Notes: generated by a model not told the origin, from the letters alone. Shown: positions 5,449 through 61,285, counted from the first letter of the stretch. The stretch is 64,000 nt of DNA from Candidatus Omnitrophota bacterium (GCA_023818645.1 JAMWCJ010000001.1:9584-73583), one strand, 5' to 3'. Program-made: numbers and translations.

Positions 5449-6003
5449 ATGAAGACATTAAAGAAACATTTTATTTCTGGAATAATTTTTATAATTCCTG
5501 TTTCTCTTTCTATATGGATTTTATTTAAAGTATTTATTTTTTTAGAAAATATACTTGGAAATTTTTTTAAGAAGTTTTTCCCCAATATATACACACCCGG
5601 GATTGGATTAATTTCTTTAATTCTTCTTATTTTATTTGTTGGTTTTCTTGCAAATAATTTTTTAGGCAAAAAAATCCTTAAATTAATAGAATCTCTTTTT
5701 GAAAATACACCATTTTTAAATAAAATTTTTTCTTTTTTAAAAAGTATTATTCAGCAAATTACAGAAGATAAAAAACAAGTATTCAAAGGAGTAGTAAGAA
5801 TTAAATTGCCAAATGATTCATATACAATAGGATTTATTACAAGAGAAGAAATGGAAAGTAAAAATATTTATGTTTTTGTTCCAACAGTCCCTAATATAAG
5901 CACGGGATTTATTATAGTAATACCACAAGAAAAGGTTGAAAGATTGGATATATCAACAGAAAATGCTTTAAAATTAATTATTTCTATGGGAATTTTTAAA
6001 TAG
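5449..6003 (+). CDS. DUF502-like membrane protein
   Basis: Two N-terminal TM helices, then a soluble domain with V(R/K)I.LP....Y.IGF.T. The layout is as recalled for DUF502. This is a family assignment from memory. Confidence 0.5.
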   Translation: MKTLKKHFISGIIFIIPVSLSIWILFKVFIFLENILGNFFKKFFPNIYTPGIGLISLILLILFVGFLANNFLGKKILKLIESLFENTPFLNKIFSFLKSIIQQITEDKKQVFKGVVRIKLPNDSYTIGFITREEMESKNIYVFVPTVPNISTGFIIVIPQEKVERLDISTENALKLIISMGIFK

Positions 6004-6007
6004 TAAA

Positions 6008-6748
6008 ATGCCTCCAATCCTGACCGAAGGTTTTGTTTTAAAAAAAATTAATTTCAGAGAGACAAGCGTAATACTAACACTATTCACAAAAGAATTTGGC
6101 AAAATCAAAGGTATTTTGAAAGGAGTTAGAAAAGAAAAAAGCAAGATACCTCCTTTAACTTTTAGCGAAGGAGCATATATTTCAACTTTTATCTATAAAA
6201 GAAAATCAGAATTAAATCTTTTAAGTTCACCAAGTTTAATCAACTTTTTTTATTTTGAAGACAAATTATCTTTTACTATATTTCTTTATATTTTAAAACT
6301 TATAGATCTTTTTACTCCTGAGTTACAAAAAGAAGAAAATATTTTTTATCTTATAGAACACACTGTAGAAAGTTTGAAACAGAATAAGAAAAAATATATA
6401 GTTTTTCTTTTCTTTAAGATAAAATTTATAGAATTTCTTGGATATGGAATAAAAGTTGATAGTTGTAGTTTGTGTGGAAAAGAGAGTAAAAAATATTTTT
6501 TTTCCCCAAAAAAAGGAGGCCTTCTATGTGAAAAATGTAGAAAAGAAGATTTAAATTGTGTTAAAATATCTAACAAGTTAATTTCAATAATAAGGTTTAT
6601 TAAAAGGGTTTATTTAAAAAATTTTGAGTTTCTGAAGATTAGTAAAAAAGACGCAGAAAAAATAAATTATCTCTGTAATTTAGTTTTTTATTATCATTCA
6701 AATTTAGATTTTATATGGTGGAGAAATGAGAAAAATATATTCCGATGA
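6008..6748 (+). CDS. recO: DNA repair protein RecO
   Basis: The N-terminal OB fold begins LTEGFVLKKINFRETSVIL. Zinc finger CSLCGK...CEKCR. Confidence 0.8.
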   Translation: MPPILTEGFVLKKINFRETSVILTLFTKEFGKIKGILKGVRKEKSKIPPLTFSEGAYISTFIYKRKSELNLLSSPSLINFFYFEDKLSFTIFLYILKLIDLFTPELQKEENIFYLIEHTVESLKQNKKKYIVFLFFKIKFIEFLGYGIKVDSCSLCGKESKKYFFSPKKGGLLCEKCRKEDLNCVKISNKLISIIRFIKRVYLKNFEFLKISKKDAEKINYLCNLVFYYHSNLDFIWWRNEKNIFR

Positions 6749-7565
6749 AATTGTTGAAAAGTTATCTGAAACTATTATAGAGATTAATTATAAACTTCCA
6801 AAAGAAATAAAAAATTGTATTAAAACTGCTTATATGAATGAAACTGAAAAGTATTCTAAGAAATATTTGGATATTATACTAAAAAATATTGAAATTGCCG
6901 AAAAAAAAAGAATACCAATCTGTCAAGATACAGGACTTACTATTGTCTTTGTAGAAATAGGAATGGATATAAAAATAGAGAAAGGTAAATACAAAAATTT
7001 AGAAGAGATAATAAATAAAGGTGTTGAGATAGGTAGTAAAAAAGGATTTTTAAGAAATTCAATTGTGAGTGCAATAGAAAGAAAAAACACAGGAAGCAAT
7101 ACTCCTTGTGTTATTCATTTCCTTTTAAATGATAGTAATAAATTAAAATTTACAATAATTGCAAAGGGTTTTGGTTCAGAGAACAAAAGTAGAATAAAAA
7201 TGTTAAAACCATCTGAAGGAAAAAAAGGAATAGAAAATTTTATAATTGAAACGGTTAAAAAAGCAGGTAGTTTCCCTTGTCCTCCTTTATTTATTGGTGT
7301 TGGGATTGGAGGCTCTTTTGAAAAAGCGGCAATTCTCTCAAAATATGCTTTAAGTAGGATAGGTAAGGAAGATTCTAAATATAGGAACTGGGAAAAAGAA
7401 ATTATTTTTAAAATAAATAAACTAAAAATAGGACCATCTGGTTTTGGTGGCAATATTACTGCACTTGATTTAAAAATTGAAACATATCCAACACATATCG
7501 CAGGATTACCTGTTGCAGTAAACTTATGCTGTTGGGCGCATAGAATAGGTAGTTTTGAAATATGA
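6726..7565 (+). CDS. Fe-S hydro-lyase alpha subunit (class I fumarate hydratase / L(+)-tartrate dehydratase alpha type)
   Basis: PICQDTGLTIVFVEIG motif. It is paired with a beta-subunit gene overlapping by 4 nt. Confidence 0.8.
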   Translation: MRKIYSDEIVEKLSETIIEINYKLPKEIKNCIKTAYMNETEKYSKKYLDIILKNIEIAEKKRIPICQDTGLTIVFVEIGMDIKIEKGKYKNLEEIINKGVEIGSKKGFLRNSIVSAIERKNTGSNTPCVIHFLLNDSNKLKFTIIAKGFGSENKSRIKMLKPSEGKKGIENFIIETVKKAGSFPCPPLFIGVGIGGSFEKAAILSKYALSRIGKEDSKYRNWEKEIIFKINKLKIGPSGFGGNITALDLKIETYPTHIAGLPVAVNLCCWAHRIGSFEI

Positions 7566-8092
7566 AAAATATATATTTCCCTTTGAAAAAAGAGAAGGAT
7601 TTAGAGAAATTAAAAGTTGGTGATTATGTTTTAATAAGTGGTAAGATTCTTACAGCAAGGGATGCAGCACATAAAAAACTAATTGATGATATAAAGAAAG
7701 GAAAAAGTATCCCTTTAAATATAAAAAACGCTTTAATTTACTATACAGGCCCTTCACCTGCTCCTCCTGGTAAAATAGTTGGTTCAATTGGACCAACGAC
7801 AAGTGAAAGAATGGATAATCTAACAATTCCATTGTTAAAATTAGGATTGAAAGCAACGATGGGAAAAGGTGAAAGAAGTGAAAAGATTGTTAAGAGTTGT
7901 AAAATTTTCAAAGCAGTTTATTTTATTACTTATGGCGGATGTGGTGCTTATTTAAATCAATTTGTCAAAGGAATAAAACTTTTATGTTTTGAAGAACTTG
8001 GACCTGAAGGTATTTACGAACTTGAGGTTATTAATTTCCCTGCAATAGTAGGTATTGATATTTATGGGAATAATTTTTATAAATTTAGATAG
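7562..8092 (+). CDS. Fe-S hydro-lyase beta subunit (class I fumarate hydratase / tartrate dehydratase beta type)
   Basis: GKILTARDAAHKKL and the rest of the 176-aa length fit the C-terminal domain of the FumA/TtdB family. Confidence 0.8.
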   Translation: MKNIYFPLKKEKDLEKLKVGDYVLISGKILTARDAAHKKLIDDIKKGKSIPLNIKNALIYYTGPSPAPPGKIVGSIGPTTSERMDNLTIPLLKLGLKATMGKGERSEKIVKSCKIFKAVYFITYGGCGAYLNQFVKGIKLLCFEELGPEGIYELEVINFPAIVGIDIYGNNFYKFR

Positions 8093-10064: not shown

Positions 10065-11716
10065 TTGAGAATTCCTCCTGTGTTGGCAGAATGGACAAGT
10101 TTTGAATATTTTTCAAGAACTCCTTTTAAATCCTTTTTTAATATCTTAATTTCTTTTTTCCTTCTTCTCATTTCTTCTTCATCTATACGGACTTCAATTC
10201 TTCTTGAAGGAATATCTATTTCAATTATATCTCCATCTTTTACATAAGCAATTGGACCACCTTCTGCTGCTTCAGGACTTATATGTCCAACACATGGTCC
10301 CCTTGTACCACCTGAGAATCTTCCGTCTGTAATTAAAGCAATTTTTTCTTCAAGTCCCTTTCCGCTTATTACAGATGTTATTGATAACATTTCTCTCATT
10401 CCAGGACCACCTTTTGGTCCTTCATATCTTATAACTATTACCCCTTCTTTTATTTTACCTTTAACAACTTCTTTCATAGCGTCTTCTTCTGAATTAAATA
10501 CAATTGCTTTTCCTATAAATCTTTTCATATTTTCTTTAACCGCTGACTGTTTTACAACTGCACCATTTGGAGCAAGGGATCCTTTTAAAATTGCTATTCC
10601 ACCTTCTTTCATATAAGGGTTTTCAATATCTCTAATAACATTTCTATCGTAAACTTCTGCTTTTTCAATGATTTCTCCAATTTTTTCACCCGAGACAGTT
10701 AAACATTCTTTTTCAATTAATCCTTTTTTGCTTAATTCTTTCATCACTGCAGGAATACCACCGGCATTATCTAAATCTTGTAAATGCTGTCCGGAAGCAG
10801 GAGAAAATTTACATATATTTGGAGTTATCTTACTTAACTGGTCAAAAATTTCAAGTTCAAGTTTAATTTGACCTTCATTTGCAATTGCTGGAAGATGTAA
10901 AACAGTATTTGTTGACGCACCAATTGCCATATCAACAACAATTGCATTCTTGAAACTTTCAAATCTTATAATATCTAACGGTTTAATATTCTTTTTAACA
11001 AGTTCAACAACTTTCATTCCTGTAAATTTTGCTAATCTAATTCTTCGTGCATCTACTGCAGGTATCGTTCCATTTCCAGGTAAAGCCAGACCTAATGCTT
11101 CTGAAAGACAATTCATTGAGTTTGCTGTAAACATTCCTGCACAACTTCCAGCACCAGGACATGCTCTTTCTTCTATAATTTTAAGTTGTTCTTCTGTTAT
11201 TTCTCCTTCTAAAAATCTTCCCACTCCTTCAAAAACACTTATTAAATCAAGTTCCTTTTTATCTGGCAAAAATCCACATAACATAGGCCCCCCACTTATA
11301 AAAATTCCAGGGATATTTAATCTTAAAAGAGCCATTAACATCCCAGGAACAATTTTATCACAACTTGCTACCACAACTATTCCGTCAAATTGATGTGCCT
11401 CTGCCATTATTTCAATACTATCTGCAATTATATCTCTTGAGACCAAACTATATTTCATTCCTTGATGTCCCATTGCTATTCCATCACAAACTCCGATAGT
11501 TCTAAATTCAATTGGAGTTCCACCTGCGATTCTAATTCCTGCTTTAACCGCTTCTGTAATTTTATCAAGATGTATATGCCCTGGGATTATCTCATTTCCA
11601 GAATTTGCAACTCCTATTATTGGATTTTTTATTTCTTCATCTGTGAGTCCAATTGCTTTTAACAAACTTCTATGGGGAGCTTTTAAATAGCCCTTTTTTA
11701 TATTATCACTTCTCAT
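10061..11716 (-). CDS. ilvD: Dihydroxy-acid dehydratase
   Basis: [19 protein letters not shown]...[10 protein letters not shown], and N-terminal [19 protein letters not shown]. The likely start is the ATG at 11716, preceded by GGAGGG. The ORF-track TTG at 11728 is 4 codons upstream. Confidence 0.9.
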
Positions 11717-29350: not shown

Positions 29351-29473
29351 TGTCTCTGGCAACACCTACTCTCCCACCTCCTCGCGAAGGCAGTACCATC
29401 GGCGTCGGGAGGCTTAACGACCGTGTTCGGGATGGGAACGGGTGTTGCCCTCCCGCTATGGTTGCCAGAGACA
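29351..29473 (-). rRNA. rrf: 5S ribosomal RNA
   Basis: The reverse complement contains the universal 5S motifs CCCGAACACGG, GTTAAGC, GCCGATGGTACTG and GGGAGAGTAGG. The terminal helix TGTCTCTGGCAAC/GTTGCCAGAGACA pairs perfectly. The ORF-track entries 29317..29508(-) and 29350..29568(+) are artefacts of this RNA. Confidence 0.85.
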
Positions 29474-29540: not shown

Positions 29541-33536
<3,996 letters not shown>

Positions 33537-33581: not shown

Positions 33582-34436
33582 ATGGAAAATTTAATAAATA
33601 TATACAACAAAATTTATAAAGTGATAAAAGATGAATTTGAGTTTGAAAATCAAATAAAAAGGATTTATTTATTTAATGAAATCAGGAAAGTTGCATTTCT
33701 ATCTCTTCCTCCTCACTGCACTTCTCTTTTAATCATTCTACCAGGAGCAGGTTTTAATAAAAAAACAGAGAGATTACTGTATAAAAATTTTCAGTATTTA
33801 TTAAAAGACAATATTGGTATATGTATTTATATTTTAAATGACGGGAATTTAAATAAAGAAGATTATATTTTTTTTGAATATTTTAAAGAAAAAATTGGAG
33901 AAATTAGGGGATTAGTTAAATATATAAAAGATGAGTTAAAAATAAGAGATATAAATCTTTTAGGAATAAGTTTTGGGGGGATAATCGGTTTTATTGTTAC
34001 AGCATTGGAAAAAGACATCAAAAAATCTATCTTTTTCATCTCTGGTGTAAATTTAGAATTTATTACATGGAGAAGTTTACTTCGTTTTAAGTTAAAAAAA
34101 GAGTGTAAAAGAAATGTTTGTAAAAAGATGCATAAAATTTATAAAAATCTGATAAAAAATAATCTTTACGATGAAATATTAAATCTTCCAAAAAAATGTT
34201 TTCTTTACGAACCCCTTACATATATAAATAATCTGAGAGATAGAAAAATACTGATGATAAATGGGATTTTTGATATGATAGTGCCATTTTACTGTGCGTT
34301 AGAAGTAAAAAAATGGTTAAAAAATATAAAAATTTTATGGTATCCATCAACTCATTTAACATTTAAATTTTTCTTTCCTATTGTAAAAAAGAGAGTTTTA
34401 AATTTTTTGAAAAATGAAAATATACACAGGAATTGA
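33582..34436 (+). CDS. Alpha/beta-hydrolase-fold protein (putative esterase)
   Basis: Nucleophile elbow GISFGG preceded by IILPGAGFN. 284 aa. Confidence 0.45.
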   Translation: MENLINIYNKIYKVIKDEFEFENQIKRIYLFNEIRKVAFLSLPPHCTSLLIILPGAGFNKKTERLLYKNFQYLLKDNIGICIYILNDGNLNKEDYIFFEYFKEKIGEIRGLVKYIKDELKIRDINLLGISFGGIIGFIVTALEKDIKKSIFFISGVNLEFITWRSLLRFKLKKECKRNVCKKMHKIYKNLIKNNLYDEILNLPKKCFLYEPLTYINNLRDRKILMINGIFDMIVPFYCALEVKKWLKNIKILWYPSTHLTFKFFFPIVKKRVLNFLKNENIHRN

Positions 34437-34755
34437 CATAACTGAAATTGAAAGATTTAAAAAGGCATATGAAAAATATAAAGAAAAATTTCTTAAAAAA
34501 ATCTTTTTTAATGATGAACTTGAATTTTTAAAAGGAAACCTGTTAAAGATGTGTATTTCTTTTTCTTTTAAAGAAGCAATCTGGAAAACACTACCAGAAC
34601 AAATCCAGCAGAAATTACTTTTCAAAGATATAAAAATTGGATGGGACAAAGGCAATCCTTTTTTATTAGAAATAATAGAAAATTATGAAATTGTCTTTTC
34701 TTATTCAACAACTGAAAAATATGTAGTCGCTTTTGTTTTATTGATTGAACCCTGA
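34414..34755 (+). CDS. acpS: Holo-[acyl-carrier-protein] synthase (4'-phosphopantetheinyl transferase)
   Basis: 113 aa. N-terminal GIDITEIERF and FSFKEA.WK match the AcpS GIDIVEI..FAAKEA..KA pattern. Confidence 0.65.
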   Translation: MKIYTGIDITEIERFKKAYEKYKEKFLKKIFFNDELEFLKGNLLKMCISFSFKEAIWKTLPEQIQQKLLFKDIKIGWDKGNPFLLEIIENYEIVFSYSTTEKYVVAFVLLIEP

Positions 34756-35934
34756 ATTGACAATTAATTGATATGTATCAAAAGCAATTCTTAATTCCTC
34801 ATTTGTAGGAATAACAAAAATTTTAACTTGAGAAGAATCTTTACTTATTTCTCCTTCTTTTCCTACAATTTCTTTATTCTTCTCTAAATCTAAAACAATG
34901 CCAAAAAGTTCCATATCATTCAAAGATTTTTCTCTCACAAGAGGAACATTTTCTCCAATCCCTCCTGTAAAAATAATGGCATCAACCTTACCAAGTACAG
35001 CCATATAACTACCAATATATTTTTTTAATCTATAACAGAACATATCAATTGCTAAAGTGACTTTTTCATCTTTATTATAAAGAGGTAATAAATTTCTAAA
35101 ATCATTTGAAACTTCAGAAATCCCGAGTAAACCACTTTTTTTATTTAATATTTCACTCACTTCAGAAATATCTAAATTTAATCGTTCTAAAAAATAGAGA
35201 ATAACTCCAGGATCCAAGTCACCAGACCTTGTTCCCATTATCAAACCTTCAAGAGGAGTTAATCCCATACTTGTATCAAACGACTTTCCATTTTTAATTG
35301 CTGTTATACTACATCCATTCCCAAGATGACAGGTAATTGCATTTAATTCATATTTACCTTTTCCCATAATTTCGGAGACCCTTCTTGCAACATACCTGTG
35401 AGAAGTCCCATGAAATCCATATTTTCTTATTTTATACTTTTCATAAAAACTATAAGGGATTGCATAAAGATTAGAAACTTTTGGTAATGTGGTATGAAAG
35501 GCAGTATCAAAAGCAGCAACCTGAGTAGATTTAGGGAAAATCTTAATACATCCTTTTATTCCTGATAAATTGTGTGGATTATGTAGTGGAGCAAGAAAAA
35601 TATAATCTTCAATTTTTTTTATTACATTTTCATCTATTATAACGCTCTTTTCAAAACCTTCTCCACCATGAACAACCCTATGCCCTACTCCTTTTATTTC
35701 CTCAATGTTTTTTATTTCATTTTCAAGAAGTGTATTCGCAATAAGTTCAAGTCCAATCTGATGGTTATCTATTTTTATTTTTTTTTCTAATTTTGTTTTT
35801 CCAATATATTTGAAAATAGAAATTTCTTCTCCAATTTTTTCTACACTCCCATAAGAAATAAGAGTTTCTTCAGGCATCTCAAATAACTTAAATTTTATAG
35901 AAGAACTACCACAATTGATAACAAGTATTTTCAT
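34738..35934 (-). CDS. ackA: Acetate (or short-chain acyl) kinase
   Basis: MKILVINCGSSSIKFKLF N-terminus and full ASKHA-fold length of 398 aa. Confidence 0.9.
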   Translation of the reverse strand: MKILVINCGSSSIKFKLFEMPEETLISYGSVEKIGEEISIFKYIGKTKLEKKIKIDNHQIGLELIANTLLENEIKNIEEIKGVGHRVVHGGEGFEKSVIIDENVIKKIEDYIFLAPLHNPHNLSGIKGCIKIFPKSTQVAAFDTAFHTTLPKVSNLYAIPYSFYEKYKIRKYGFHGTSHRYVARRVSEIMGKGKYELNAITCHLGNGCSITAIKNGKSFDTSMGLTPLEGLIMGTRSGDLDPGVILYFLERLNLDISEVSEILNKKSGLLGISEVSNDFRNLLPLYNKDEKVTLAIDMFCYRLKKYIGSYMAVLGKVDAIIFTGGIGENVPLVREKSLNDMELFGIVLDLEKNKEIVGKEGEISKDSSQVKIFVIPTNEELRIAFDTYQLIVNSGFNQ

Positions 35935-36179
35935 TTTTTCAAAAGGTATTCTTTAATAAATTCAACTGCATCACCAACTGTTTTTACATCAAGTGCCTTT
36001 TCTTCATCCATCTCTATACCAAATTCTTCTTCAAATGCTGCAACAAGTTCTAAACTTTGAACACTTTCAGCACCAAGATCTTCTACGAATTTATCTTTAA
36101 GTTCAATTTTATCTTTATCAATACCAAGAACCTCTGAAATTACTTTTTTCACTCTTTCAATTATTTCAGTATCATTCAT
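35931..36179 (-). CDS. acpP: Acyl carrier protein
   Basis: 82 aa. DLGAESVQSLELVAAFEEEFGIEMDEE matches [20 protein letters not shown], including the phosphopantetheinyl Ser. Overlaps ackA by 4 nt. Confidence 0.7.
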   Translation of the reverse strand: MNDTEIIERVKKVISEVLGIDKDKIELKDKFVEDLGAESVQSLELVAAFEEEFGIEMDEEKALDVKTVGDAVEFIKEYLLKK

Positions 36180-36187
36180 AAATCCTC

Positions 36188-37477
36188 CTATTTTGAAATT
36201 TTTCTACTTTTTTCAATATATGTTTTTCTTTCTGTTTCTGTCATCTCGTAAATATTTCTAATTGCTGCTTCCTCCTCTTTTAAAAGTTCTCTATTTCTTC
36301 TCTTCATTGAAATTCTTACTGTTTCCAAGGAAGATTCAAGTCCATAACCCTTCATAAATTTTCCATTTACAAACCATATAAATGAAGGAAAATATTTTGG
36401 AAGTATATTATTTGCTGTTATATTACACATTATACCAACTATTGTTCCAGTATTAAAAAGTGTTCCAATACTTGTTTTTGTATGGTCACCTATAAAAGAA
36501 CCGACCTTTAATTGTCCTGTATCCACTGGTTTACCATTTAAATATACGCTCACATTTGAATAATCATTTTTTAAATCGCTATTTGTTGTTAAAGCACCAA
36601 GATTTACAAATTCTCCTACATAACTATGGCCTATAAAACCATCATGATATTTGTTGGAATAGGAATGAAAAATGCTTTCTTCAACCTCTCCACCAATCCT
36701 GCAAACAGGTCCAAAACTATTCCCTTCTCTTATTTTTGCACCTGGCATAATCTGTGTATTTTCTCCTATATATGAAGGACCAATTATTACTGAAAAAGGA
36801 AAAATCTTCACTCCTTCATCTATATATACAGGACCTTCACTTACATCAATTACTACAGAAGGATAAATTTCTGCTGTAGAAGCAATAAAAACATCTTTTT
36901 CTGAACCATAAATGCATGCTTTATCAGAAAATTTTCCTAAAATTCCTGCTTTATTTCTTTTTTTAAATTCAAATTTTATCAATTGTAAGTTATAACAAAT
37001 TAAATCCCAAGGATATTTAATGATAGTAAAATCTGTCTTTTTCGTTTTTAAATTACTCAATAAATTTTTCAAAAACTCATCTATATCTCCATTCCAGTAT
37101 TTATTCACATTTTCTCTTTTTATCAAACCATAAACAATTTCATCATCTTTTATATATATCTCCTCTTCCTTTAAATCAAATTCCACATCTCTATCAATTA
37201 ACCATCTTCCATTTATAATTAAAACATCATCTTTTAAAAAGTCCTCTTCATTTACTTTATAATTAAACTTTTTCTTGCAAAGATCTTTCAAATAATCTCT
37301 TACAAACAAAATCACATCTCCTTCTGGTAAAATAGAAACAATTTTTTCTAAAATTGAGTTAAAACCACATCTCAATTCAAAAACTACCTTCAAATAAGAA
37401 ATAGGTGTAAGATTAATCCAATTTCTGTCTTCATAAATTAATATTTTCATATTTACTCCTTTTAATTCATTAAACAA
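36188..37477 (-). CDS. Left-handed beta-helix (hexapeptide-repeat) transferase with degenerate N-terminal nucleotidyltransferase-like domain (GlmU-like)
   Basis: The C-terminal half is a run of hexapeptide repeats (IGENTQIMPGAKIREGNSFGPVCRIGGEVEESIF...VGSFIGDHTKTSIGTLFNTGTIVG). The N-terminus lacks GXGTRL. Confidence 0.5.
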   Translation of the reverse strand: MFNELKGVNMKILIYEDRNWINLTPISYLKVVFELRCGFNSILEKIVSILPEGDVILFVRDYLKDLCKKKFNYKVNEEDFLKDDVLIINGRWLIDRDVEFDLKEEEIYIKDDEIVYGLIKRENVNKYWNGDIDEFLKNLLSNLKTKKTDFTIIKYPWDLICYNLQLIKFEFKKRNKAGILGKFSDKACIYGSEKDVFIASTAEIYPSVVIDVSEGPVYIDEGVKIFPFSVIIGPSYIGENTQIMPGAKIREGNSFGPVCRIGGEVEESIFHSYSNKYHDGFIGHSYVGEFVNLGALTTNSDLKNDYSNVSVYLNGKPVDTGQLKVGSFIGDHTKTSIGTLFNTGTIVGIMCNITANNILPKYFPSFIWFVNGKFMKGYGLESSLETVRISMKRRNRELLKEEEAAIRNIYEMTETERKTYIEKSRKISK

Positions 37478-38436
37478 GTAATAACAGTTGTAATAATTAT
37501 ATCTTTTACTTTTGCTCCTCTTGATAAATCACTCACTGGTTTTGCAAAACCCTGAAGAATAGGTCCATATGCTTCTGCATTTCCTAAATATTGAGTTATT
37601 TTATAAGCAATATTACCTGAATTTAAATCAGGGAAAATTAAAACATTTGCCTTACCTCCAACAGGTGAAAAATCCTTTATTTTTCTTCTTGCCACTTCTT
37701 CATTTATTGCTGAATCTACCTGAAATTCTCCATCAATATCAAATTCTTTATTTTTCTCTTTTGCTATTTTTACTGCCTTTTGAATTTTTTCTACCAATGG
37801 ATGAGAAGCAGAACCTTTTGTAGAAAAAGATAGAAAAGCAATTTTAGGGTTAGTTCCAATTAGTTTTTTATAATTTAATCCTGTTGTTATTCCTATTTCT
37901 GCAAGTTGATTTTCATCTGGTAGAATATTAACTGCACAATCTGCAAAAAAATAAATTCTCCCATCAGGCAAAACCATTATAAAGAAACTTGAAACTGTCT
38001 TTATTCCTTCAAGATATCCAACTGTAAGGGCTGCTGCTTGAATAACATTTGCAGTTGTATTTACTGCACCTGCAACCATAGAATCACAAATACCTGTATC
38101 AACGAGTAACCCTCCAAAGACGAGGGGTCTTTTTACCATTTTTTCTGCAATATTTTTATTTATATTTTTTCTATTTTCACAATATCTTTCTACAAGAGTA
38201 TTAAAAAGTTCAGAATTTTCAGGTTCAATTATTTCAATCTGCGAAATATTTGAAATTCCAAGATTTTTCCCAATTTCATAAATTTTTTCTTTTTTCCCAA
38301 TAAGAACAGGAAATACTATCTTTTCTTTTAACAATTCAGAAGCAGATAACAAAATTCTTTCATCTTCTCCTTCTGGAAAAACAACCTTTTTATTTAAACT
38401 TTTAACTTTTTCAATAAATTCCTGTATTTTATCCAT
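37462..38436 (-). CDS. pta: Phosphate acetyl/butyryl-transferase (short Pta/Ptb family)
   Basis: KVVFPEGEDERIL and SMVAGAVNTTANVIQAA motifs. 324 aa. This is not PlsX (no GGD.AP). Confidence 0.8.
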   Translation of the reverse strand: MDKIQEFIEKVKSLNKKVVFPEGEDERILLSASELLKEKIVFPVLIGKKEKIYEIGKNLGISNISQIEIIEPENSELFNTLVERYCENRKNINKNIAEKMVKRPLVFGGLLVDTGICDSMVAGAVNTTANVIQAAALTVGYLEGIKTVSSFFIMVLPDGRIYFFADCAVNILPDENQLAEIGITTGLNYKKLIGTNPKIAFLSFSTKGSASHPLVEKIQKAVKIAKEKNKEFDIDGEFQVDSAINEEVARRKIKDFSPVGGKANVLIFPDLNSGNIAYKITQYLGNAEAYGPILQGFAKPVSDLSRGAKVKDIIITTVITCLMN

Positions 38437-38438
38437 TT

Positions 38439-39233
38439 TTAAAATAATCTTAATCCTATTTTTTTTTCTGCTTCACTTGCAAATTTATAATATTCTTTTC
38501 TTTTTAATTTACTTGCTGCCTCTTCATCTAAAATAATAGTTACTTTTGGATGTAATTGTAACACAGAAGCAGAAATCTGAGAAGTTATTGGTCCTTCAAT
38601 CGCTTTCGCAACAATCTCTGCCTTTTTTTCTCCATTTGCAAGAAGTATAATTTCTTTTGCTTCAAGTATAGTCCCAACTCCCATTGTAATAGCAAATCTT
38701 GGAACATCTTCTATTTTATCAAAAAATCTTGAATTATCTTTGATTGTTTGTTCATCAAGAGCAACCAATCTTGTTCGAGAATTAAGGGAAGAACCAGGCT
38801 CATTAAAACCAATATGTCCATCCCCTCCAATTCCAACAACTTGTAAATCAATCCCACCTACTTTTTTAATCATATCTTCATACCATTCACAATATTGTTC
38901 TATTTTTTCAATTGGGACTTTTCCATCTGGTACATTTGTATTATCTTTTTTTATATTTATATGATTGAACAAATTAATATCCATAAAATATCTATAACTT
39001 TGAGGATGATCCGGAGAGAGTCCGTAGTATTCATCAAGGTTAAATGTAATAACTTTAGAAAAATCAAGTCCTTCTTCTTTATGCATTCTTATAAGTTCTT
39101 TATACAATCCAACAGGAGTACTTCCTGTTGCAAGTCCTAAAACACAATTTTCCTTTTTTTGTATTAAATCTTTAACTATTTTTGCTGCTTCTTTACTCAT
39201 TTCTTCATAATTCTTCTTTATTATCACTCGCAT
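38439..39233 (-). CDS. nagB: Glucosamine-6-phosphate deaminase
   Basis: MRVII..GLATGSTP..FNLDEYYGL. The likely start is MRVII at 39233, although the ORF-track Met is at 39266. Either way it overlaps the 3' end of rpsA. Confidence 0.85.
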   Translation of the reverse strand: MRVIIKKNYEEMSKEAAKIVKDLIQKKENCVLGLATGSTPVGLYKELIRMHKEEGLDFSKVITFNLDEYYGLSPDHPQSYRYFMDINLFNHINIKKDNTNVPDGKVPIEKIEQYCEWYEDMIKKVGGIDLQVVGIGGDGHIGFNEPGSSLNSRTRLVALDEQTIKDNSRFFDKIEDVPRFAITMGVGTILEAKEIILLANGEKKAEIVAKAIEGPITSQISASVLQLHPKVTIILDEEAASKLKRKEYYKFASEAEKKIGLRLF

Positions 39234-40566
39234 CTTCCCTCCCTTTTTTGTTTTTAAAATTTTCACCTAATTGTTTAAACCCTAAAGAAATTTTTCTATT
39301 TTCTGGGTCTATTTCAAGTATCATAACTTCTACTTTCTGCCCTTTTCTTAAAACTTCTGACGGATGCTTAATTGGATTGTCTGAAATATTTGAAATATGT
39401 AAAAGCCCATCAATCCCTTTTTCTAATTCTATAAAGGCACCAAAATCTGTTATATGATAAACTTTACCTGTAACAACACTTCCAACCGGATATTTCTTTT
39501 CAATTTCAGGCCATGGATTTGGTTCAAGTTGTCTTAAACTGAAAGAAATCTTTTTTTCATCTTTTTTAATGTCTATAACCTTAACTTTCAATGTATCTCC
39601 AGTCGTTACTATTTCTGAGGGATGTTTAATTCTTCCTGTCCATGAGAGTTCGGATATATGAAGAAGACCTTCAACCCCTTCTTCAAGTTTAATAAACACG
39701 CCATAATCTGTAATATTAACAACCTTACCTTCAACTATTGAACCAACTGGATATTTTTCTTCAACTTTATCCCAAGGATTTTGTGTCTTTTGTTTTAACC
39801 CAAAAGAAACGACTTGCTTATCCAAATTTATATCAAGAACAACAACTTCTATTTTCTCACCAATACTCAAAAGTTGAGAAGGATGACTTATTCTGCCCCA
39901 ACTCATATCATTTATGTGTAGAAGTCCTACAATGCCATGTTCTATTTCTATGAAAGCGCCATAATCTATAATATTTTTCACAACTCCTTTGACAAGTTGA
40001 TTCTTATTTAAACTTTTCAGATACTCTATTTTCTGCCTTTCTTTTTCTTCTTCTATATATTCTTTTCTTGAAACAACAATATTTTTTCTTAAAGTATCAA
40101 ATTTTAATATTTTAAAAAATGTTTTCATCCCTACATATTCGTTCGGGTTTTTAATCGTTAATACGTCTGTCTGAGAAGAAGGTAAAAAGGCAGTCACTCC
40201 AATATCAACTCTATAGCCCCCTTTAACTCTTTTAAATATAACGCCTTCAACAGGAATATTATTTTTAAATTTTTCTTCTAATTGTTCCCAACATAACATA
40301 ATATCTGCTTTTTCTTTTGACAATGGAATAAGTCCATTTGTATCAGGATCTAAAGATTCAATAACTACATAAACTTCCTCACCTTTTTTCAATTCATTCA
40401 TTCTACTTTTAAATTCTTCTTTCAAAACCACACCTTCTGATTTAAATCCAATATCAATAATGACCTCTTCTTTTATAACATCCACTATTCTACCTTTAAT
40501 TAATGAACCAGGTCTAAAACTTTCTATTTTTTCTTCTAAAATTTTATTAACATTTTCTTTTGCCAT
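39205..40566 (-). CDS. rpsA: 30S ribosomal protein S1 (four S1 domains)
   Basis: Four repeats of G.V..I.D(F/Y)GAF(V/I)...G..GL(L/I)H.S... Confidence 0.9.
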   Translation of the reverse strand: MAKENVNKILEEKIESFRPGSLIKGRIVDVIKEEVIIDIGFKSEGVVLKEEFKSRMNELKKGEEVYVVIESLDPDTNGLIPLSKEKADIMLCWEQLEEKFKNNIPVEGVIFKRVKGGYRVDIGVTAFLPSSQTDVLTIKNPNEYVGMKTFFKILKFDTLRKNIVVSRKEYIEEEKERQKIEYLKSLNKNQLVKGVVKNIIDYGAFIEIEHGIVGLLHINDMSWGRISHPSQLLSIGEKIEVVVLDINLDKQVVSFGLKQKTQNPWDKVEEKYPVGSIVEGKVVNITDYGVFIKLEEGVEGLLHISELSWTGRIKHPSEIVTTGDTLKVKVIDIKKDEKKISFSLRQLEPNPWPEIEKKYPVGSVVTGKVYHITDFGAFIELEKGIDGLLHISNISDNPIKHPSEVLRKGQKVEVMILEIDPENRKISLGFKQLGENFKNKKGREDASDNKEEL

Positions 40567-41427
40567 TTAGGCCACCTCCTTATATCCAAATTTTTTTAAA
40601 TATTCTATCACCTCTTTTATAAAAAAATCAGGTGTTGAAGTTCCTGAAACAATTCCTACATTATTAAAACTATTGAAATTTATTTTACTTAAATTTGAAA
40701 AATTTTCAACAAAAAAACAATATTTACATTCTTTTTTGCAAATTTCAAAAAGTTTTTTAGTATTTGAACTTTCCTTTCCACCGAGCACCAGAACCGCATC
40801 TACTTTTTTCGCTATCTCAATACTCTCTTTTTCTCTTTCTTCTGTAACTTTACAAATAGTATTTAAAACGAGTATCTCCTTTGTTTTAACCAATTTAATA
40901 ATATTTTTTACAATATCAAAATAATAATCAAAATTTAAAGTTGTCTGACTTACAACAGCGACTTTACTTGTTTTTTTGTATTTATATCTTAATATATCTA
41001 ACTTATTTTCTATTATTTTGATATCTTTCCCATAACCTTTTATCCCTAAAACTTCTGGATGATTTTTGTCACCGATAATTAAAATATTATAATCCATATT
41101 ACTTAAATCTTCAACTAAATAATGAATTTTTTTTACAAATGGACAGGTCATATCATAAATTTTAAAATTTGAATTTTTTAATTTTTTTATTTGATTTTTA
41201 GAAAGACCGTGAGACCTTATCAAAAAGTGTTTTTCTTTAATATCTTCTATTGAATTATAAACTTTAAGACCTTTTAATTTAAGTTTCTCCATTACAAGTG
41301 GATTATGAACGATGTCCCCAACTGTAGATAAGGATTTTAACTCATCAAGTAATTTTTCAGTTGCTTCAACTGCCCTTTTAACACCAAAACAAAAGCCAAC
41401 ATTTTTTGCAACAATTATTTTTTTCAT
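40567..41427 (-). CDS. ispH: 4-hydroxy-3-methylbut-2-enyl diphosphate reductase
   Basis: N-terminus KNVGFCFGVKRAVE. Conserved Cys/His positions present. Abuts rpsA, the common ispH-rpsA linkage. Confidence 0.9.
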   Translation of the reverse strand: MKKIIVAKNVGFCFGVKRAVEATEKLLDELKSLSTVGDIVHNPLVMEKLKLKGLKVYNSIEDIKEKHFLIRSHGLSKNQIKKLKNSNFKIYDMTCPFVKKIHYLVEDLSNMDYNILIIGDKNHPEVLGIKGYGKDIKIIENKLDILRYKYKKTSKVAVVSQTTLNFDYYFDIVKNIIKLVKTKEILVLNTICKVTEEREKESIEIAKKVDAVLVLGGKESSNTKKLFEICKKECKYCFFVENFSNLSKINFNSFNNVGIVSGTSTPDFFIKEVIEYLKKFGYKEVA

Positions 41428-42011
41428 TGAAGTTTTCTAATTTCCTCTATTACTCTTTTGCTTATTTCTTCATAACTTCCTTTGTCAAAATAAAGTGGTT
41501 TCCCAATTATCACTTCAATTTTTTTTAATCTTATAAATTTACTATTCATAGGTAATGCCTTATCTGTTCCTTTCAATCTCACAGGGATAACAGGAACTTT
41601 ACTTTTTAATGCAATAAGACCAATGCCTGGTTTCCCTTCTTTAATTAATCCATCTTTACTTCTTGTCCCTTCTGGGAAAAAAACAATACCTTCTCCTCTT
41701 TTTAAAACCTCTATTGCTTTTTTCAAAGATAAAGGCATTTTACTCTCTCTATCAAGAGGAATTGCTCCTAAAATTCTAACTAAGGAAGAAAGAATTTTTA
41801 TTTTAAAAAGAGAAGTTTTAGCCATATAGTATAGTTTTCTGGGACATGCATATCCAATTGTAGGTGGGTCGAGATAACTTAAATGATTAGAAGCAATAAT
41901 AAATCCTCCTTTTTTTGGAAAATTTTCTCTCCCTTTGATTTTAATTAAAAAAAAGAGATTATAAACATAAAAACCTATAAATTTTGATAAAAGATATAAA
42001 AAACTTCTCAT
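41424..42011 (-). CDS. plsC: 1-acyl-sn-glycerol-3-phosphate acyltransferase
   Basis: ASNHLSYLDPP (H.S..D) and FPEGTRS motifs. Confidence 0.8.
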   Translation of the reverse strand: MRSFLYLLSKFIGFYVYNLFFLIKIKGRENFPKKGGFIIASNHLSYLDPPTIGYACPRKLYYMAKTSLFKIKILSSLVRILGAIPLDRESKMPLSLKKAIEVLKRGEGIVFFPEGTRSKDGLIKEGKPGIGLIALKSKVPVIPVRLKGTDKALPMNSKFIRLKKIEVIIGKPLYFDKGSYEEISKRVIEEIRKLQ

Positions 42012-58682: not shown

Positions 58683-58756
58683 AAATTTTAAAATAATTCA
58701 AATTGAAATTGAAAATAAAAAAAGATAAAATTAATAAAAAGGAAAGGAGGAAAAAA

Positions 58757-59455
58757 ATGAACATTCTTGCGATTGGAGCACATCCTGACGATCTTGAAAT
58801 TTTATGTGGTGGAACCCTTGCAAAATACTCAAAAAATGGACATAAAGTTTTTATGGCTCATTTATGTAATGGAGACAAAGGAGGAAAAAATATTACACCT
58901 ACTGAACTATCAAATATTAGAGATCGAGAAGCAAAAAAAGCAGCAAGTTTAATAGAAGCAGAAGTTTTAGGGCCAATTGCTTCTGACCTTGAACTTTATA
59001 ATACAAAAGAAATGAGAGAAAAAGTTATAGATATTATTAGATATGCAAAACCAGATATTATAATTACACATTCACCGGATGATTATATGCCAGACCATGT
59101 AATAACAGGACAACTTGTTTTTGATGCTTCATTTACTTCAACTTTACCAAATTATAAGACCAAATATCCAGCCCATGAACTTATTGTCCCAATTTTTTAT
59201 ATGGATACAATTGTTGGACTTAAATTTCAACCCACACATTATGTAGATATAACTGATTTTTTTGAAATTAAAAAACAGATGCTTTTATGTCATGAAAGTC
59301 AATATAAATGGATAAAAGGACACCATCTTTCAGACCCCTTAAATATCATTGAAACGATGGCAAAATTTAGAGGTCTGCAATGTGGAGTCCTTTATGCAGA
59401 AGGTTTTAGATCTGAAAATGTCTGGGGAAGAGTAAGACCTGTTGAATTAATCTAA
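58757..59455 (+). CDS. PIG-L/LmbE-family N-acetylglucosaminyl deacetylase
   Basis: ILAIGAHPDDLEILCGGT (the HPDD.E zinc motif). AGGAGG lies 7 nt before the ATG at 58757. The ORF-track start at 58703 is upstream of the RBS. Confidence 0.75.
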   Translation: MNILAIGAHPDDLEILCGGTLAKYSKNGHKVFMAHLCNGDKGGKNITPTELSNIRDREAKKAASLIEAEVLGPIASDLELYNTKEMREKVIDIIRYAKPDIIITHSPDDYMPDHVITGQLVFDASFTSTLPNYKTKYPAHELIVPIFYMDTIVGLKFQPTHYVDITDFFEIKKQMLLCHESQYKWIKGHHLSDPLNIIETMAKFRGLQCGVLYAEGFRSENVWGRVRPVELI

Positions 59456-59464
59456 ATGTGATAA

Positions 59465-60316
59465 ATGAAAAAAATTCTGATAACTGGTGGGAATGGATTA
59501 GTTGGAACTTATTTAAAAAAAATCTTAAATAGAGAAAATTATTCTATATTTGCCTTTGGTAAAGAACATTTAAATATAATTGATAGTGAAAAAACCTATA
59601 AAATTTTTAAGGATTTAAAACCAGAAATAGTTATTCATCTTGCAGCATTAACAGATGTTGATTTTTGTGAAAAAAATCCTGAAACAACATTTTTGATAAA
59701 TTCTAAAGGTACAGAAAATATTTCAAAATTATCGATTGACTTTAAATGTTTTTTAATTTATTTAAGCACTGATTTTATATTTGATGGTATGAAAGGTTCT
59801 CCATATTCAGAAGAAGATAAACCTAATCCAATAAATATCTATGGAAAAAGTAAACTACTTGGAGAAAAATATATTATAAACAATTGTGAAAAATATTTAA
59901 TAATAAGAACTTCCAGAATCTTTGGTAAAGGAGGAAAAAATTTTAGCAGTAGATTAAGAGAAATAATGAAACAAAAAAAAGAAATAGTTTTAACAACAGA
60001 CCTAATAAACTCTCCTACCTATGCATCATCTCTTGCAGAATGTATCTTAAAGTTGATAGAAAAGGAATTTTGTGGTATTATAAATGTTTGTAACGAGGGC
60101 TGGTGTTCTTTCTTTGAATTTGGACTTAAAATGAAAGAAATATTAAATTTAAATTTAAAAATTAAAGGGATAAGTTTTAATGAATTTTTAAGAATTTATA
60201 AAGATATTGCTCCAAGGCCAAAATTTTCACCTTTGTCGATTGACTTACTGAATTCTTTAAATATAAAAGTTGATTCCTGGGAAAGAGGTCTTGAGAAATT
60301 TTTAAAAGAGTACTAA
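59465..60316 (+). CDS. NAD(P)-dependent sugar-nucleotide reductase/epimerase (RmlD / dTDP-4-dehydrorhamnose reductase-like)
   Basis: Rossmann N-terminus KILITGGNGLVG and catalytic YGKSK (Y...K). 283 aa. Confidence 0.65.
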   Translation: MKKILITGGNGLVGTYLKKILNRENYSIFAFGKEHLNIIDSEKTYKIFKDLKPEIVIHLAALTDVDFCEKNPETTFLINSKGTENISKLSIDFKCFLIYLSTDFIFDGMKGSPYSEEDKPNPINIYGKSKLLGEKYIINNCEKYLIIRTSRIFGKGGKNFSSRLREIMKQKKEIVLTTDLINSPTYASSLAECILKLIEKEFCGIINVCNEGWCSFFEFGLKMKEILNLNLKIKGISFNEFLRIYKDIAPRPKFSPLSIDLLNSLNIKVDSWERGLEKFLKEY

Positions 60317-60319
60317 AAA

Positions 60320-61285
60320 ATGAAAAAAATAAAAGTTGGTTTTATTGGATGTGGTGGTTTTGCAAATATGGTTTACTATCCATCTTTAACTGAAATGGAT
60401 GATGTTGAAATTGTTGCGATATGTGATATTAATCAGGAAAAACTTAATAATACAGGCAAAAAATATAATATAGAGAAAAGATATACAGATTATAGAAAAA
60501 TGATAGAAGAAAATGAGTTAGATGCAGTTTATATAATTATGCCACCTCACCACTTATATGACATTGTTATAGATGTTTTAAAAAGGAAATTAAATGTATA
60601 TATAGAAAAGCCTCCAGGAATTACTTTATTTCAGATAAAAAATATGGCGAATTTTGCGATTAAAAACAATTGTAAAACAATGGTTGGTTTTAATAGAAGA
60701 TTTATTCCTTTATTGAGAAAAGTAAAAGAAATTGTTGAAAAGAAAGGCCCTATTATTCAAGCAGTTTCAACTTTTTACAAAAATATGTATCCTAATTTTC
60801 TTTACTATAACGGAGCAATTGATATATTAACATCCGATGCTATTCACTCAGTTGATGTTTTAAGATGGCTATGTGGAGAAGCAAAAAATGTAAAAAGTAT
60901 CATAAAGTCATATTATTCCGATACGCCAAATGCTTTTAATGCAATAATTGAATTTGAAAAAGGAGCCACTGGAATTTTATTGACAAACTGGACTGTTGGG
61001 AAAAGATTTCACACCTTTGAACTACATTCCTTAGGTATTTCTGCTTTTGTTAACTGTGATGATAAAGCACTTATATATGAAGATAATAATGAAAAACCGG
61101 AGATTATATCAACTTTTGATGTTGCTAAAAGTAATCAACTTTATAAGTTTTATGGATATTATGATGAAAATAAATATTTTATTACCTGTATAAAAGAAAA
61201 CAAACAACCAGAATGCAATTTCTATGATTCAATTAAAACAATGGAACTTGTTGAACAAATTTATAAAAACAATATTTCTTCTTAG
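60320..61285 (+). CDS. Gfo/Idh/MocA-family NAD(P)-dependent oxidoreductase
   Basis: KVGFIGCGGFANMVYYPSL N-terminus and the EKP motif (YIEKPPG). Confidence 0.75.
   Translation: MKKIKVGFIGCGGFANMVYYPSLTEMDDVEIVAICDINQEKLNNTGKKYNIEKRYTDYRKMIEENELDAVYIIMPPHHLYDIVIDVLKRKLNVYIEKPPGITLFQIKNMANFAIKNNCKTMVGFNRRFIPLLRKVKEIVEKKGPIIQAVSTFYKNMYPNFLYYNGAIDILTSDAIHSVDVLRWLCGEAKNVKSIIKSYYSDTPNAFNAIIEFEKGATGILLTNWTVGKRFHTFELHSLGISAFVNCDDKALIYEDNNEKPEIISTFDVAKSNQLYKFYGYYDENKYFITCIKENKQPECNFYDSIKTMELVEQIYKNNISS

Follow-up and report, generated by a model that had tools for sequence, protein, structure and literature searches.

What is a gene for an acyl carrier protein (ACP) doing between the gene for a GlmU-like left-handed-beta-helix acyltransferase (LbH) and that for an acetate kinase? 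The question is raised by a 64-kb stretch of DNA from a Candidatus Omnitrophota bacterium (JAMWCJ010000001.1:9584-73583; hereafter the window, to whose positions the coordinates of its genes refer), in which nagB, pta, LbH, acp and ackA form a run on the minus strand, accompanied by a holo-ACP synthase gene, acpS. The original prediction, made from the window alone, was that this run specifies an uncharacterised ACP-dependent N-acylation, possibly of an amino sugar, tied to acetyl-phosphate metabolism. This idea now gains support from the recurrent linkage of LbH to ACP, from a natural fusion of the two, from non-homologous replacements of the accessory enzymes, and from the ACP and AcpS genes of archaeal loci.

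LbH is linked genetically to a dedicated ACP, and in one lineage the two are physically joined. Whatever enzyme family provides them, two functions accompany the pair, namely the interconversion of an acetyl thioester with acetate and ATP and that of glucosamine-6-phosphate with fructose-6-phosphate and ammonia. Taken together, the components point to a module for carrier-protein-dependent acetylation (or de-acetylation) of amino sugars. The module is widespread in many bacterial phyla and some archaea and is uncharacterised; a full-text literature search found no paper describing it (ACP, AcpS, Pta-AckA or an ADP-forming acyl-CoA synthetase [ACD], NagB or a SIS-type deaminase, and GlmM).

Conservation of the gene cluster

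A scan of one genome per species yielded at least 561 loci encoding an LbH relative. The best 80 (43-88% identity; cited below by L numbers) were kept, their open reading frames (ORFs) were searched with the window proteins, and all ORFs were clustered. The bacterial loci come from Omnitrophota, Ratteibacteria, TA06, Planctomycetota (including Phycisphaerae and the Brocadiaceae-labelled metagenome-assembled genomes [MAGs] L062 and L078), Poribacteria, Latescibacterota, KSB1, Zhuqueibacterota, Elusimicrobia, Desantisbacteria, Aerophobetes, Abditibacteriales, Desulfobacteraceae and Cytophagia-labelled MAGs, more than 10 phyla in all. Nine loci are archaeal: Thermofilaceae, Thermoproteales, Bathyarchaeota B24 and B26-2, Hadarchaeota, Thaumarchaeota/Nitrososphaeria and one unclassified archaeon. 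A second homologue search for cultured carriers, with a Pirellulales query, returned only metagenomic relatives.

Members of the LbH family were found in 77 of the 80 loci, of the ACP family in 62, and of the NagB, Pta, AckA and AcpS families in 51, 45, 39 and 13, respectively. Where enough sequence was available downstream of LbH to assess ACP (73 loci), a same-strand ACP gene lay directly 3' of LbH in 56 by the first count; a profile rescan added L010, L073, L080 and a fragment in L045, bringing the figure to about 59-60 of 73. The 40 fully flanked loci, those with 4 kb or more of sequence on each side of LbH, encode NagB within 4 kb in 28 cases, Pta in 28, AckA in 24, and Pta plus AckA or ACD in 26.

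The order nagB-pta-LbH-acp-ackA is that of the window's lineage, many others have pta-ackA-LbH-acp, and nagB may precede or follow the core or be inverted, giving at least 4 gene orders among the more than 10 phyla and the archaea. The other flanking genes are heterogeneous, with the commonest Pfam family accounting for only 5 of 131 flanking proteins. Since the orders vary and the flanks are heterogeneous, the clustering reflects selection for linkage, not inherited synteny. Conservation of gene order had been proposed as a check; the linkage recurs in 80 loci of many phyla and two domains, and the order itself varies by lineage. The clustering is far beyond chance. Identity matrices of LbH, Pta and AckA correlate at r = 0.90-0.93, in line with movement of the module as a whole.

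Some loci depart from the common content. The closest genome relative (L001, 87% identity) has no ACP ORF between LbH and a shortened ackA (5974-7869), which may be due to a deletion or an assembly error, and several loci (L052, L057, L066 and L067) have LbH-ACP alone. The commonest non-module neighbour of LbH-ACP is a GFO/IDH/MocA oxidoreductase (the 5 of 131 mentioned above; L019, L020, L049 and L071).

Fusion, archaeal copies and replacement of accessory enzymes

Among the top matches to the LbH family in the search of cluster representatives described below was a natural LbH-ACP fusion of 520 aa (P0249/P0390) with NTP_transf_4, Hexapep and PP-binding domains. Its C-terminal 80 residues constitute a PP-binding/ACP domain (38.5 bits vs 20.8) with the motif ELGFESID, and the fusion gene is present in three independent assemblies, in one of them on a 385-kb contig. 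In L082 (11685-13007), a GFO/IDH/MocA gene directly follows the fusion gene and is itself followed by genes for DUF6807 and 3-keto-disaccharide-hydrolase-like proteins. A long 'ACP' ORF in L068, considered as another fusion, proved to be an upstream ORF extension.

ACP was found in all nine archaeal loci and AcpS in seven of them; archaea are generally not known to depend on ACP for lipid synthesis. The L041 contig is truly archaeal, as it carries the gene for ribosomal protein L10/P0 in the flank of the locus, and the nearest relatives of the archaeal LbH, ACP, Pta and AckA copies are other archaeal copies.

The accessory enzymes can be exchanged for unrelated ones. Seven loci (L037, L039, L053, L054, L060, L063 and L070) lack pta and ackA and encode ACD, a protein of about 700 aa with CoA_binding_2, Succ_CoA_lig and ATP-grasp_5 domains (TIGR02717, 554 bits), the gene of which usually lies beside an ACP gene. 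The Planctomycetota locus L060 has two module-type ACP genes (7463-7717 and 11386-11631), one after LbH and one after ACD. In the Thermofilaceae loci, the place of NagB is taken by a 349-aa SIS-domain protein akin to the isomerase half of GlmS and to GlmD/NagB-II deaminases. An archaeal-type phosphoglucosamine mutase, GlmM, is encoded in five loci (TIGR03990, 462 bits vs 439) and links the 6-phosphate and 1-phosphate sugars. Two genes that occur in single cases, for a family-4 glycoside hydrolase (GH4) between acp and ackA in the Latescibacterota locus L035 (5188-6492) and for a heparinase II/III-like lyase after ackA in L010 (3233-5254), hint at polysaccharide catabolism.

The LbH protein

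A domain search of the LbH protein, as the original prediction had proposed, identified a full-length member of TIGR03991 (alt_bact_glmU; 361.2 bits, cutoff 225.3, residues 10-410 of a 429-aa ORF), that is, a relative of GlmU. PF13562 (NTP_transf_4; 78.7 bits, cutoff 27) and PF00132 (Hexapep) were also matched. TIGR03991 is a hypothetical equivalog, annotated as GlmU in IMG; current labels of the family are GlmU or 'putative sugar nucleotidyl transferase'. A search of 1.84 billion cluster representatives returned 1,896 clusters at 50% identity with E values of 1e-30 or better.

In GlmU-type enzymes, the N-terminus carries a Gly-rich loop, GxGT/SR, and a PK motif. The N-terminus of LbH reads MKILIYEDRNWINLTPISYLKVVFELRCG, and the family consensus IFEDxKWxNLxPLxYxRPVFELRCG replaces both elements. 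The N-terminal domain has the nucleotidyltransferase fold with the signature GxGTR...PK missing, and the general nucleotidyltransferase families PF00483 and PF12804 gave no match to LbH. An ordinary GlmU paralogue with an intact but overlooked nucleotidyltransferase motif, the alternative that the original prediction had raised against itself, was thus not found. Since the signature is absent, LbH is not a bifunctional GlmU, and it is probably not a canonical uridylyltransferase. In L037 (3739-5259), a 507-aa GlmU-like protein with a canonical nucleotidyltransferase domain is encoded directly after LbH (182 bits, below the cutoffs of the GlmU models); it is a candidate for the uridylyltransferase partner otherwise missing from the module.

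The acetyltransferase half is better preserved. ST0452 of Sulfolobus tokodaii (PDB 2ggo, 5z09), an archaeal GlmU-type nucleotidylyltransferase/N-acetyltransferase with acetyl-CoA as donor, has the same two-domain plan, with the LbH domain placed after one of nucleotidyltransferase fold. The LbH family profile matched it best among sequences (E 6.7e-23 over the LbH domain), as did the AlphaFold2 model (pLDDT 86, pTM 0.86) among structures (E 2.5e-13, TM 0.5-0.6, about 20% identity). In the HMMER alignment, the invariant H269 falls on His308 of ST0452, reported to be indispensable for its acetyltransferase activity, the numbering being in agreement; the catalytic His is thus retained, and other family-conserved positions also align. 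Among the many invariant polar residues of the domain, C250 (in at least 90% of sequences), E257, H275, D292, Y297 and D322 have no counterpart in ST0452. Further differences are the lack of the N-terminal Gly-rich NTP loop and of the Lys of the RPK motif, an extra 70-residue helical C-terminal domain and the linkage of the gene to ACP; TIGR03992, the ST0452-type model, was matched only at residues 214-358 and below cutoff (106.7 bits vs 292.1). Bifunctional bacterial GlmU shares the LbH acetyltransferase domain with its catalytic His, with weak matches in the same region (TIGR01173, 26.6 bits, cutoff 366.85), and differs in having the LxxGxGTRM...PK signature.

LpxD is an LbH enzyme that N-acylates the 2-amino group of glucosamine from acyl-ACP. 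In the LbH model, residues 370-419 form three helices after the beta-helix, with invariant R384, R385 and R408, and this predicted domain is reminiscent of the ACP-recognition domain of LpxD. The three-part layout (N-terminal nucleotide-binding, LbH, and C-terminal helical ACP-recognition domains) would then be common to both proteins. That LbH draws on acyl-ACP, as LpxD does, has indirect support from the adjacency of ACP in about 59-60 of 73 loci and from the fusion. In contrast, the scores for LpxD (TIGR01853, 23.6 bits, cutoff 242.5) and LpxA (TIGR01852, 16.3 bits, cutoff 231) are far below threshold, LpxD uses long hydroxyacyl chains from fatty-acid synthesis whereas the module's neighbours point to acetyl, and carriers of the module include archaea, in which lipid A is absent. 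The family has been catalogued (TIGR03991, PF13562) but is uncharacterised; by these comparisons, LbH belongs neither to GlmU proper nor to ST0452-type GlmU nor to LpxD. Its function probably differs from that of GlmU in being carrier-protein-dependent, without a uridylyltransferase motif.

Large DUF4954 proteins with weak LbH similarity (637 and 726 aa) are encoded between nagB and pta/LbH in two different phyla (L035, 739-2649; L046, 3803-5980). DUF4954 was rejected as a specific relative of the LbH family at a profile comparison probability of 14%.

The carrier protein, AcpS and the acetate and sugar enzymes

The window ACP exceeds the cutoff of the AcpP equivalog (TIGR00517, 79.8 bits, cutoff 70.45; PF00550, 53 bits). 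Its attachment site reads DLGAESVQS, and the attachment Ser is present in all module ACPs compared. A signature, DLGAES[VI]QS..ELVAAFEEEF.IEMDE, is common to the ACPs that follow LbH in other phyla and is unlike the corresponding sequences of E. coli and B. subtilis AcpP. No fab genes were seen by eye in the 64-kb window. AcpS matched the Pfam family ACPS (40.3 bits, cutoff 25) and scored below the cutoff of TIGR00516 (44.5 bits vs 59.8).

Pta belongs to its family by both TIGR00651 (326.3 bits, cutoff 311.2) and PF01515 (350 bits). The catalytic motif (SDLSRGAKVKD; DLSRG...D), with the equivalents of Ser309, Arg310 and Asp316, is kept in all module Ptas. In another segment, canonically SGAxHSTxDTVRPALQ, the module Ptas deviate systematically, and the window protein reads AGAVNTTANVIQAAAL. 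Here the position of Arg133 of the Methanosarcina thermophila enzyme, a CoA-site residue affecting Km (PMC6461089), is occupied by Gln in the window protein, as in most bacterial module Ptas, whereas archaeal ones have Arg or Lys there. The CoA-site arginine equivalent to Arg87 is kept. As a marker of ACP use, the Arg133-to-Gln change is suggestive only, not being universal. A precedent for exchange between acyl-ACP and acyl phosphate is PlsX, which interconverts the two and belongs to the same structural clan as PTA_PTB; the window enzyme is of the PTA_PTB/Pta family itself, and we infer that it, too, uses ACP. AckA is by its scores a canonical acetate kinase (TIGR00016, 511 bits, cutoff 293; 430 bits to the Thermotoga maritima enzyme, 2iir), and NagB scored 334.9 bits with TIGR00502 (cutoff 236.9) and 357 bits with NF001684 (cutoff 326).

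Organization of the locus in the window

The minus-strand gene run and the presence of acpS are as first described, and curated hidden Markov models confirmed all six identities (Table 1). The 4-nt overlap of acp and ackA is also correct (ATGA, the ackA start lying over the acp stop). Three details were revised. A 16-nt overlap of pta and LbH depends on a TTG start at 37477; since the ATG at 37450 has an AAGGAG ribosome-binding site 6 nt upstream and the homologues in databases are all about 420 aa long and begin with MK, LbH most probably starts at this ATG and has 420 rather than 429 aa, leaving an 11-nt gap after pta. For nagB, the GTG at 39266 (275 aa) gives way to the likelier ATG at 39233, preceded by a GGGAGGG ribosome-binding site. 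Finally, acpS does not diverge from ackA as first thought; the two genes converge, with an 18-nt overlap of their 3' ends.

Table 1. Genes of the module and of the adjoining upstream run
Gene and product	Position	Strand	Remarks
plsC	41424-42011	-	upstream in same run
ispH	40567-41427	-	upstream in same run
rpsA	39205-40566	-	directly upstream of nagB
nagB, glucosamine-6-phosphate deaminase, 264 aa	38439-39233	-	TIGR00502, 335 bits
pta, phosphotransacetylase family, module-specific subtype, 324 aa	37462-38436	-	TIGR00651
LbH, GlmU-like left-handed-beta-helix acyltransferase, 420 aa	36188-37450	-	TIGR03991, PF13562, PF00132
acp, module-type acyl carrier protein, 82 aa	35931-36179	-	TIGR00517, PF00550
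ackA, acetate kinase, 398 aa	34738-35934	-	TIGR00016
acpS, holo-ACP synthase, 113 aa	34414-34755	+	Pfam ACPS (PF01648)

The start of nagB overlaps the end of rpsA by 29 nt, and the transcription unit therefore extends upstream into rpsA-ispH-plsC. Judging from these overlaps, the module is probably co-transcribed with rpsA-ispH-plsC in the window's lineage and so has a housekeeping setting. A scan for promoters and terminators between 33.4 and 43.4 kb (76 promoter-like sites vs 57 expected; 3 terminator-like sites vs 2.5 expected) was uninformative in this DNA, the G+C content of which is about 27%.

On the plus strand, a gene for a 284-aa alpha/beta-hydrolase (33582-34436; weak match to Abhydrolase_1) overlaps the start of acpS by 23 nt. 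The two genes are kept together in related Omnitrophota/Ratteibacteria loci (L001-L005), and in this lineage the hydrolase could be a thioesterase or esterase partnering the carrier protein. The hydrolase gene is adjoined by one for a DUF763 protein on the minus strand (32427-33536; 375 bits), a position kept in L001, L002 and L005. Farther away, a lone 5S rRNA gene (29354-29469, minus strand; 98 bits) lies between DNA-glycosylase-like and xerD-like ORFs; no 16S or 23S rRNA gene was found anywhere within the window, and the 5S gene appears to be unlinked from an rRNA operon. Inspection of the translations by eye suggests that, at 58703-61285 on the plus strand, a PIG-L/LmbE-type GlcNAc-deacetylase-like gene is followed by genes for an RmlD-like reductase and a Gfo/Idh/MocA oxidoreductase; the group is a possible second cluster for amino-sugar modification.

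Proposed pathway and alternative explanations

We tentatively favour an anabolic pathway, without giving it better than an even chance, in which acetate, activated at the expense of ATP, is loaded onto the dedicated ACP and LbH then N-acetylates glucosamine phosphate. AcpS would convert ACP to holo-ACP and AckA would form acetyl phosphate from acetate and ATP; the module Pta would then move the acetyl group to the phosphopantetheine thiol of ACP, instead of or besides CoA, in what would be the PlsX reaction in reverse. In some lineages, ACD alone would perform the AckA and Pta steps. NagB would make glucosamine-6-phosphate from fructose-6-phosphate and ammonium, GlmM would convert it to glucosamine-1-phosphate, and the catalytic His of LbH would serve in the transfer of acetyl from acetyl-ACP to the 2-amino group, giving N-acetylglucosamine phosphate (GlcNAc-1-phosphate) for UDP-GlcNAc. 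From comparative genomics and a predicted structure we infer the role of ACP as the acetyl carrier, its loading by Pta or ACD, the identity of the acceptor and the anabolic direction.

The anabolic direction is favoured because the energetics are strongly favourable, the operon in the window's lineage is of housekeeping type, Brocadiaceae-labelled MAGs also carry the module, and its make-up parallels glmS-glmM-glmU. GlmM together with a nearby enzyme forming glucosamine-6-phosphate mirrors the glmS-glmM-glmU route, except that the module has NagB or a SIS-type deaminase for GlmS, plus ACP and an ATP-linked acetate enzyme. Several points weigh against this pathway. The accessory enzymes (NagB, GlmD-like, Pta-AckA and ACD) are best known as working catabolically; GlmS, an AMP-forming acetyl-CoA synthetase and a uridylyltransferase were not found in the module at the loci examined, save for the GlmU-like gene of L037; Pta and AckA score as ordinary family members; the Arg133-to-Gln change of Pta is not shared by the archaeal copies; and about 13 of the 73 assessable loci have no ACP within 6 kb. 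Moreover, with acetyl-CoA available, it is not obvious why an anabolic route should need a carrier of its own.

This last point is where the opposite direction does well. The module could be an energy-conserving, ATP-yielding substitute for NagA, in which LbH passes the N-acetyl group of GlcNAc-1-phosphate to a private ACP, Pta plus AckA or ACD turn acetyl-ACP into acetate and ATP, and GlmM with NagB or GlmD pull the reaction by draining glucosamine phosphate as fructose-6-phosphate and ammonia; a private carrier pool kept almost fully de-acetylated would enable the uphill transfer. Such a route would account for all components, including the need for a dedicated ACP and a dedicated Pta, and the accessory enzymes are all of catabolic or reversible type, through two non-orthologous replacements. 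NagB is shared with the catabolic nagA-nagB operons, and ROK/NagC-like regulators occur in L033, L054 and L055; NagA, however, was found in none of the loci examined, and beside NagB its place is taken by LbH, ACP and Pta/AckA, as a NagA substitute would lead one to expect. The GH4 and heparinase-like genes fit as well, as do the hosts, which are mostly anaerobic sediment heterotrophs and archaea; such archaea would already have a GlmU of their own. We nevertheless consider this direction unlikely, as the transfer from amide to thioester would cost about +22 to +30 kJ/mol by our estimate from textbook values, and ATP formation would by the same estimate require intracellular acetate of about 10 micromolar or less and a ratio of glucosamine-1-phosphate to GlcNAc-1-phosphate of about 0.001. 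Carriers of the module include MAGs from anaerobic digesters (L014), a setting rich in acetate, as well as the Brocadiaceae-labelled MAGs, and translational coupling to rpsA in the window suggests constitutive expression. Unlikely, too, is that LbH and ACP acylate an acceptor other than glucosamine phosphate, for example a UDP-amino sugar formed with the help of the GFO/IDH/MocA oxidoreductase that recurs at the loci, or transfer a group other than acetyl, with NagB and the acetate enzymes serving only in precursor supply. That oxidoreductase is the commonest extra neighbour and adjoins the fusion gene, some loci have LbH-ACP alone, LbH has invariant residues that ST0452 lacks, and members of the ACD family accept many acids. 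But the sugar enzymes that recur are NagB or its SIS-type analogue and GlmM, AckA is of the canonical type, and no aminotransferase recurs among the neighbours.

It is quite improbable that LbH is simply an alternative, acetyl-CoA-dependent GlmU acetyltransferase, with an ordinary Pta-AckA and an ACP of unrelated or regulatory role. The names given to the family in TIGR03991 and IMG, the canonical appearance of Pta and AckA, and the neighbouring GlmM and NagB are in keeping with this explanation; it is opposed by the adjacency of ACP in about 80% of loci in two domains, by the co-transfer of AcpS into archaea, by the LbH-ACP fusion, and by the missing nucleotidyltransferase signature, which sets LbH apart from bifunctional GlmU. 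Meaningless inherited synteny, with acp being the housekeeping AcpP of a genome without a fab cluster, is strongly disfavoured and has very little chance of being correct: the ACP does exceed the AcpP cutoff and plsC does lie in the same transcription unit, but the diversity of gene orders across phyla and archaea, the otherwise heterogeneous flanks, the ACP signature peculiar to the module and the fusion protein all speak for a functional association.

Implications

The bacterial-type pta-ack genes of hydrothermal Bathyarchaeia have been read as horizontally acquired genes for acetate formation (PMC8407382). Those of Bathyarchaeia B24 and B26-2 sit inside the module (L041 and L074), and the inference of acetate formation may therefore need revisiting. 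If the reverse direction were true, the pta-ack genes used to infer acetogenesis in these organisms would belong to an amino-sugar module, and the module would carry out substrate-level phosphorylation from an N-acetyl group, with a logic akin to that of the arginine deiminase pathway. If carrier-protein-dependent acetylation or de-acetylation is borne out, it would be the first acetyl-ACP-type route for the N-acetylation, or de-acetylation, of amino sugars, and would give ACP and AcpS a role in archaea. The hypothesis concerns five small soluble proteins and is directly testable.

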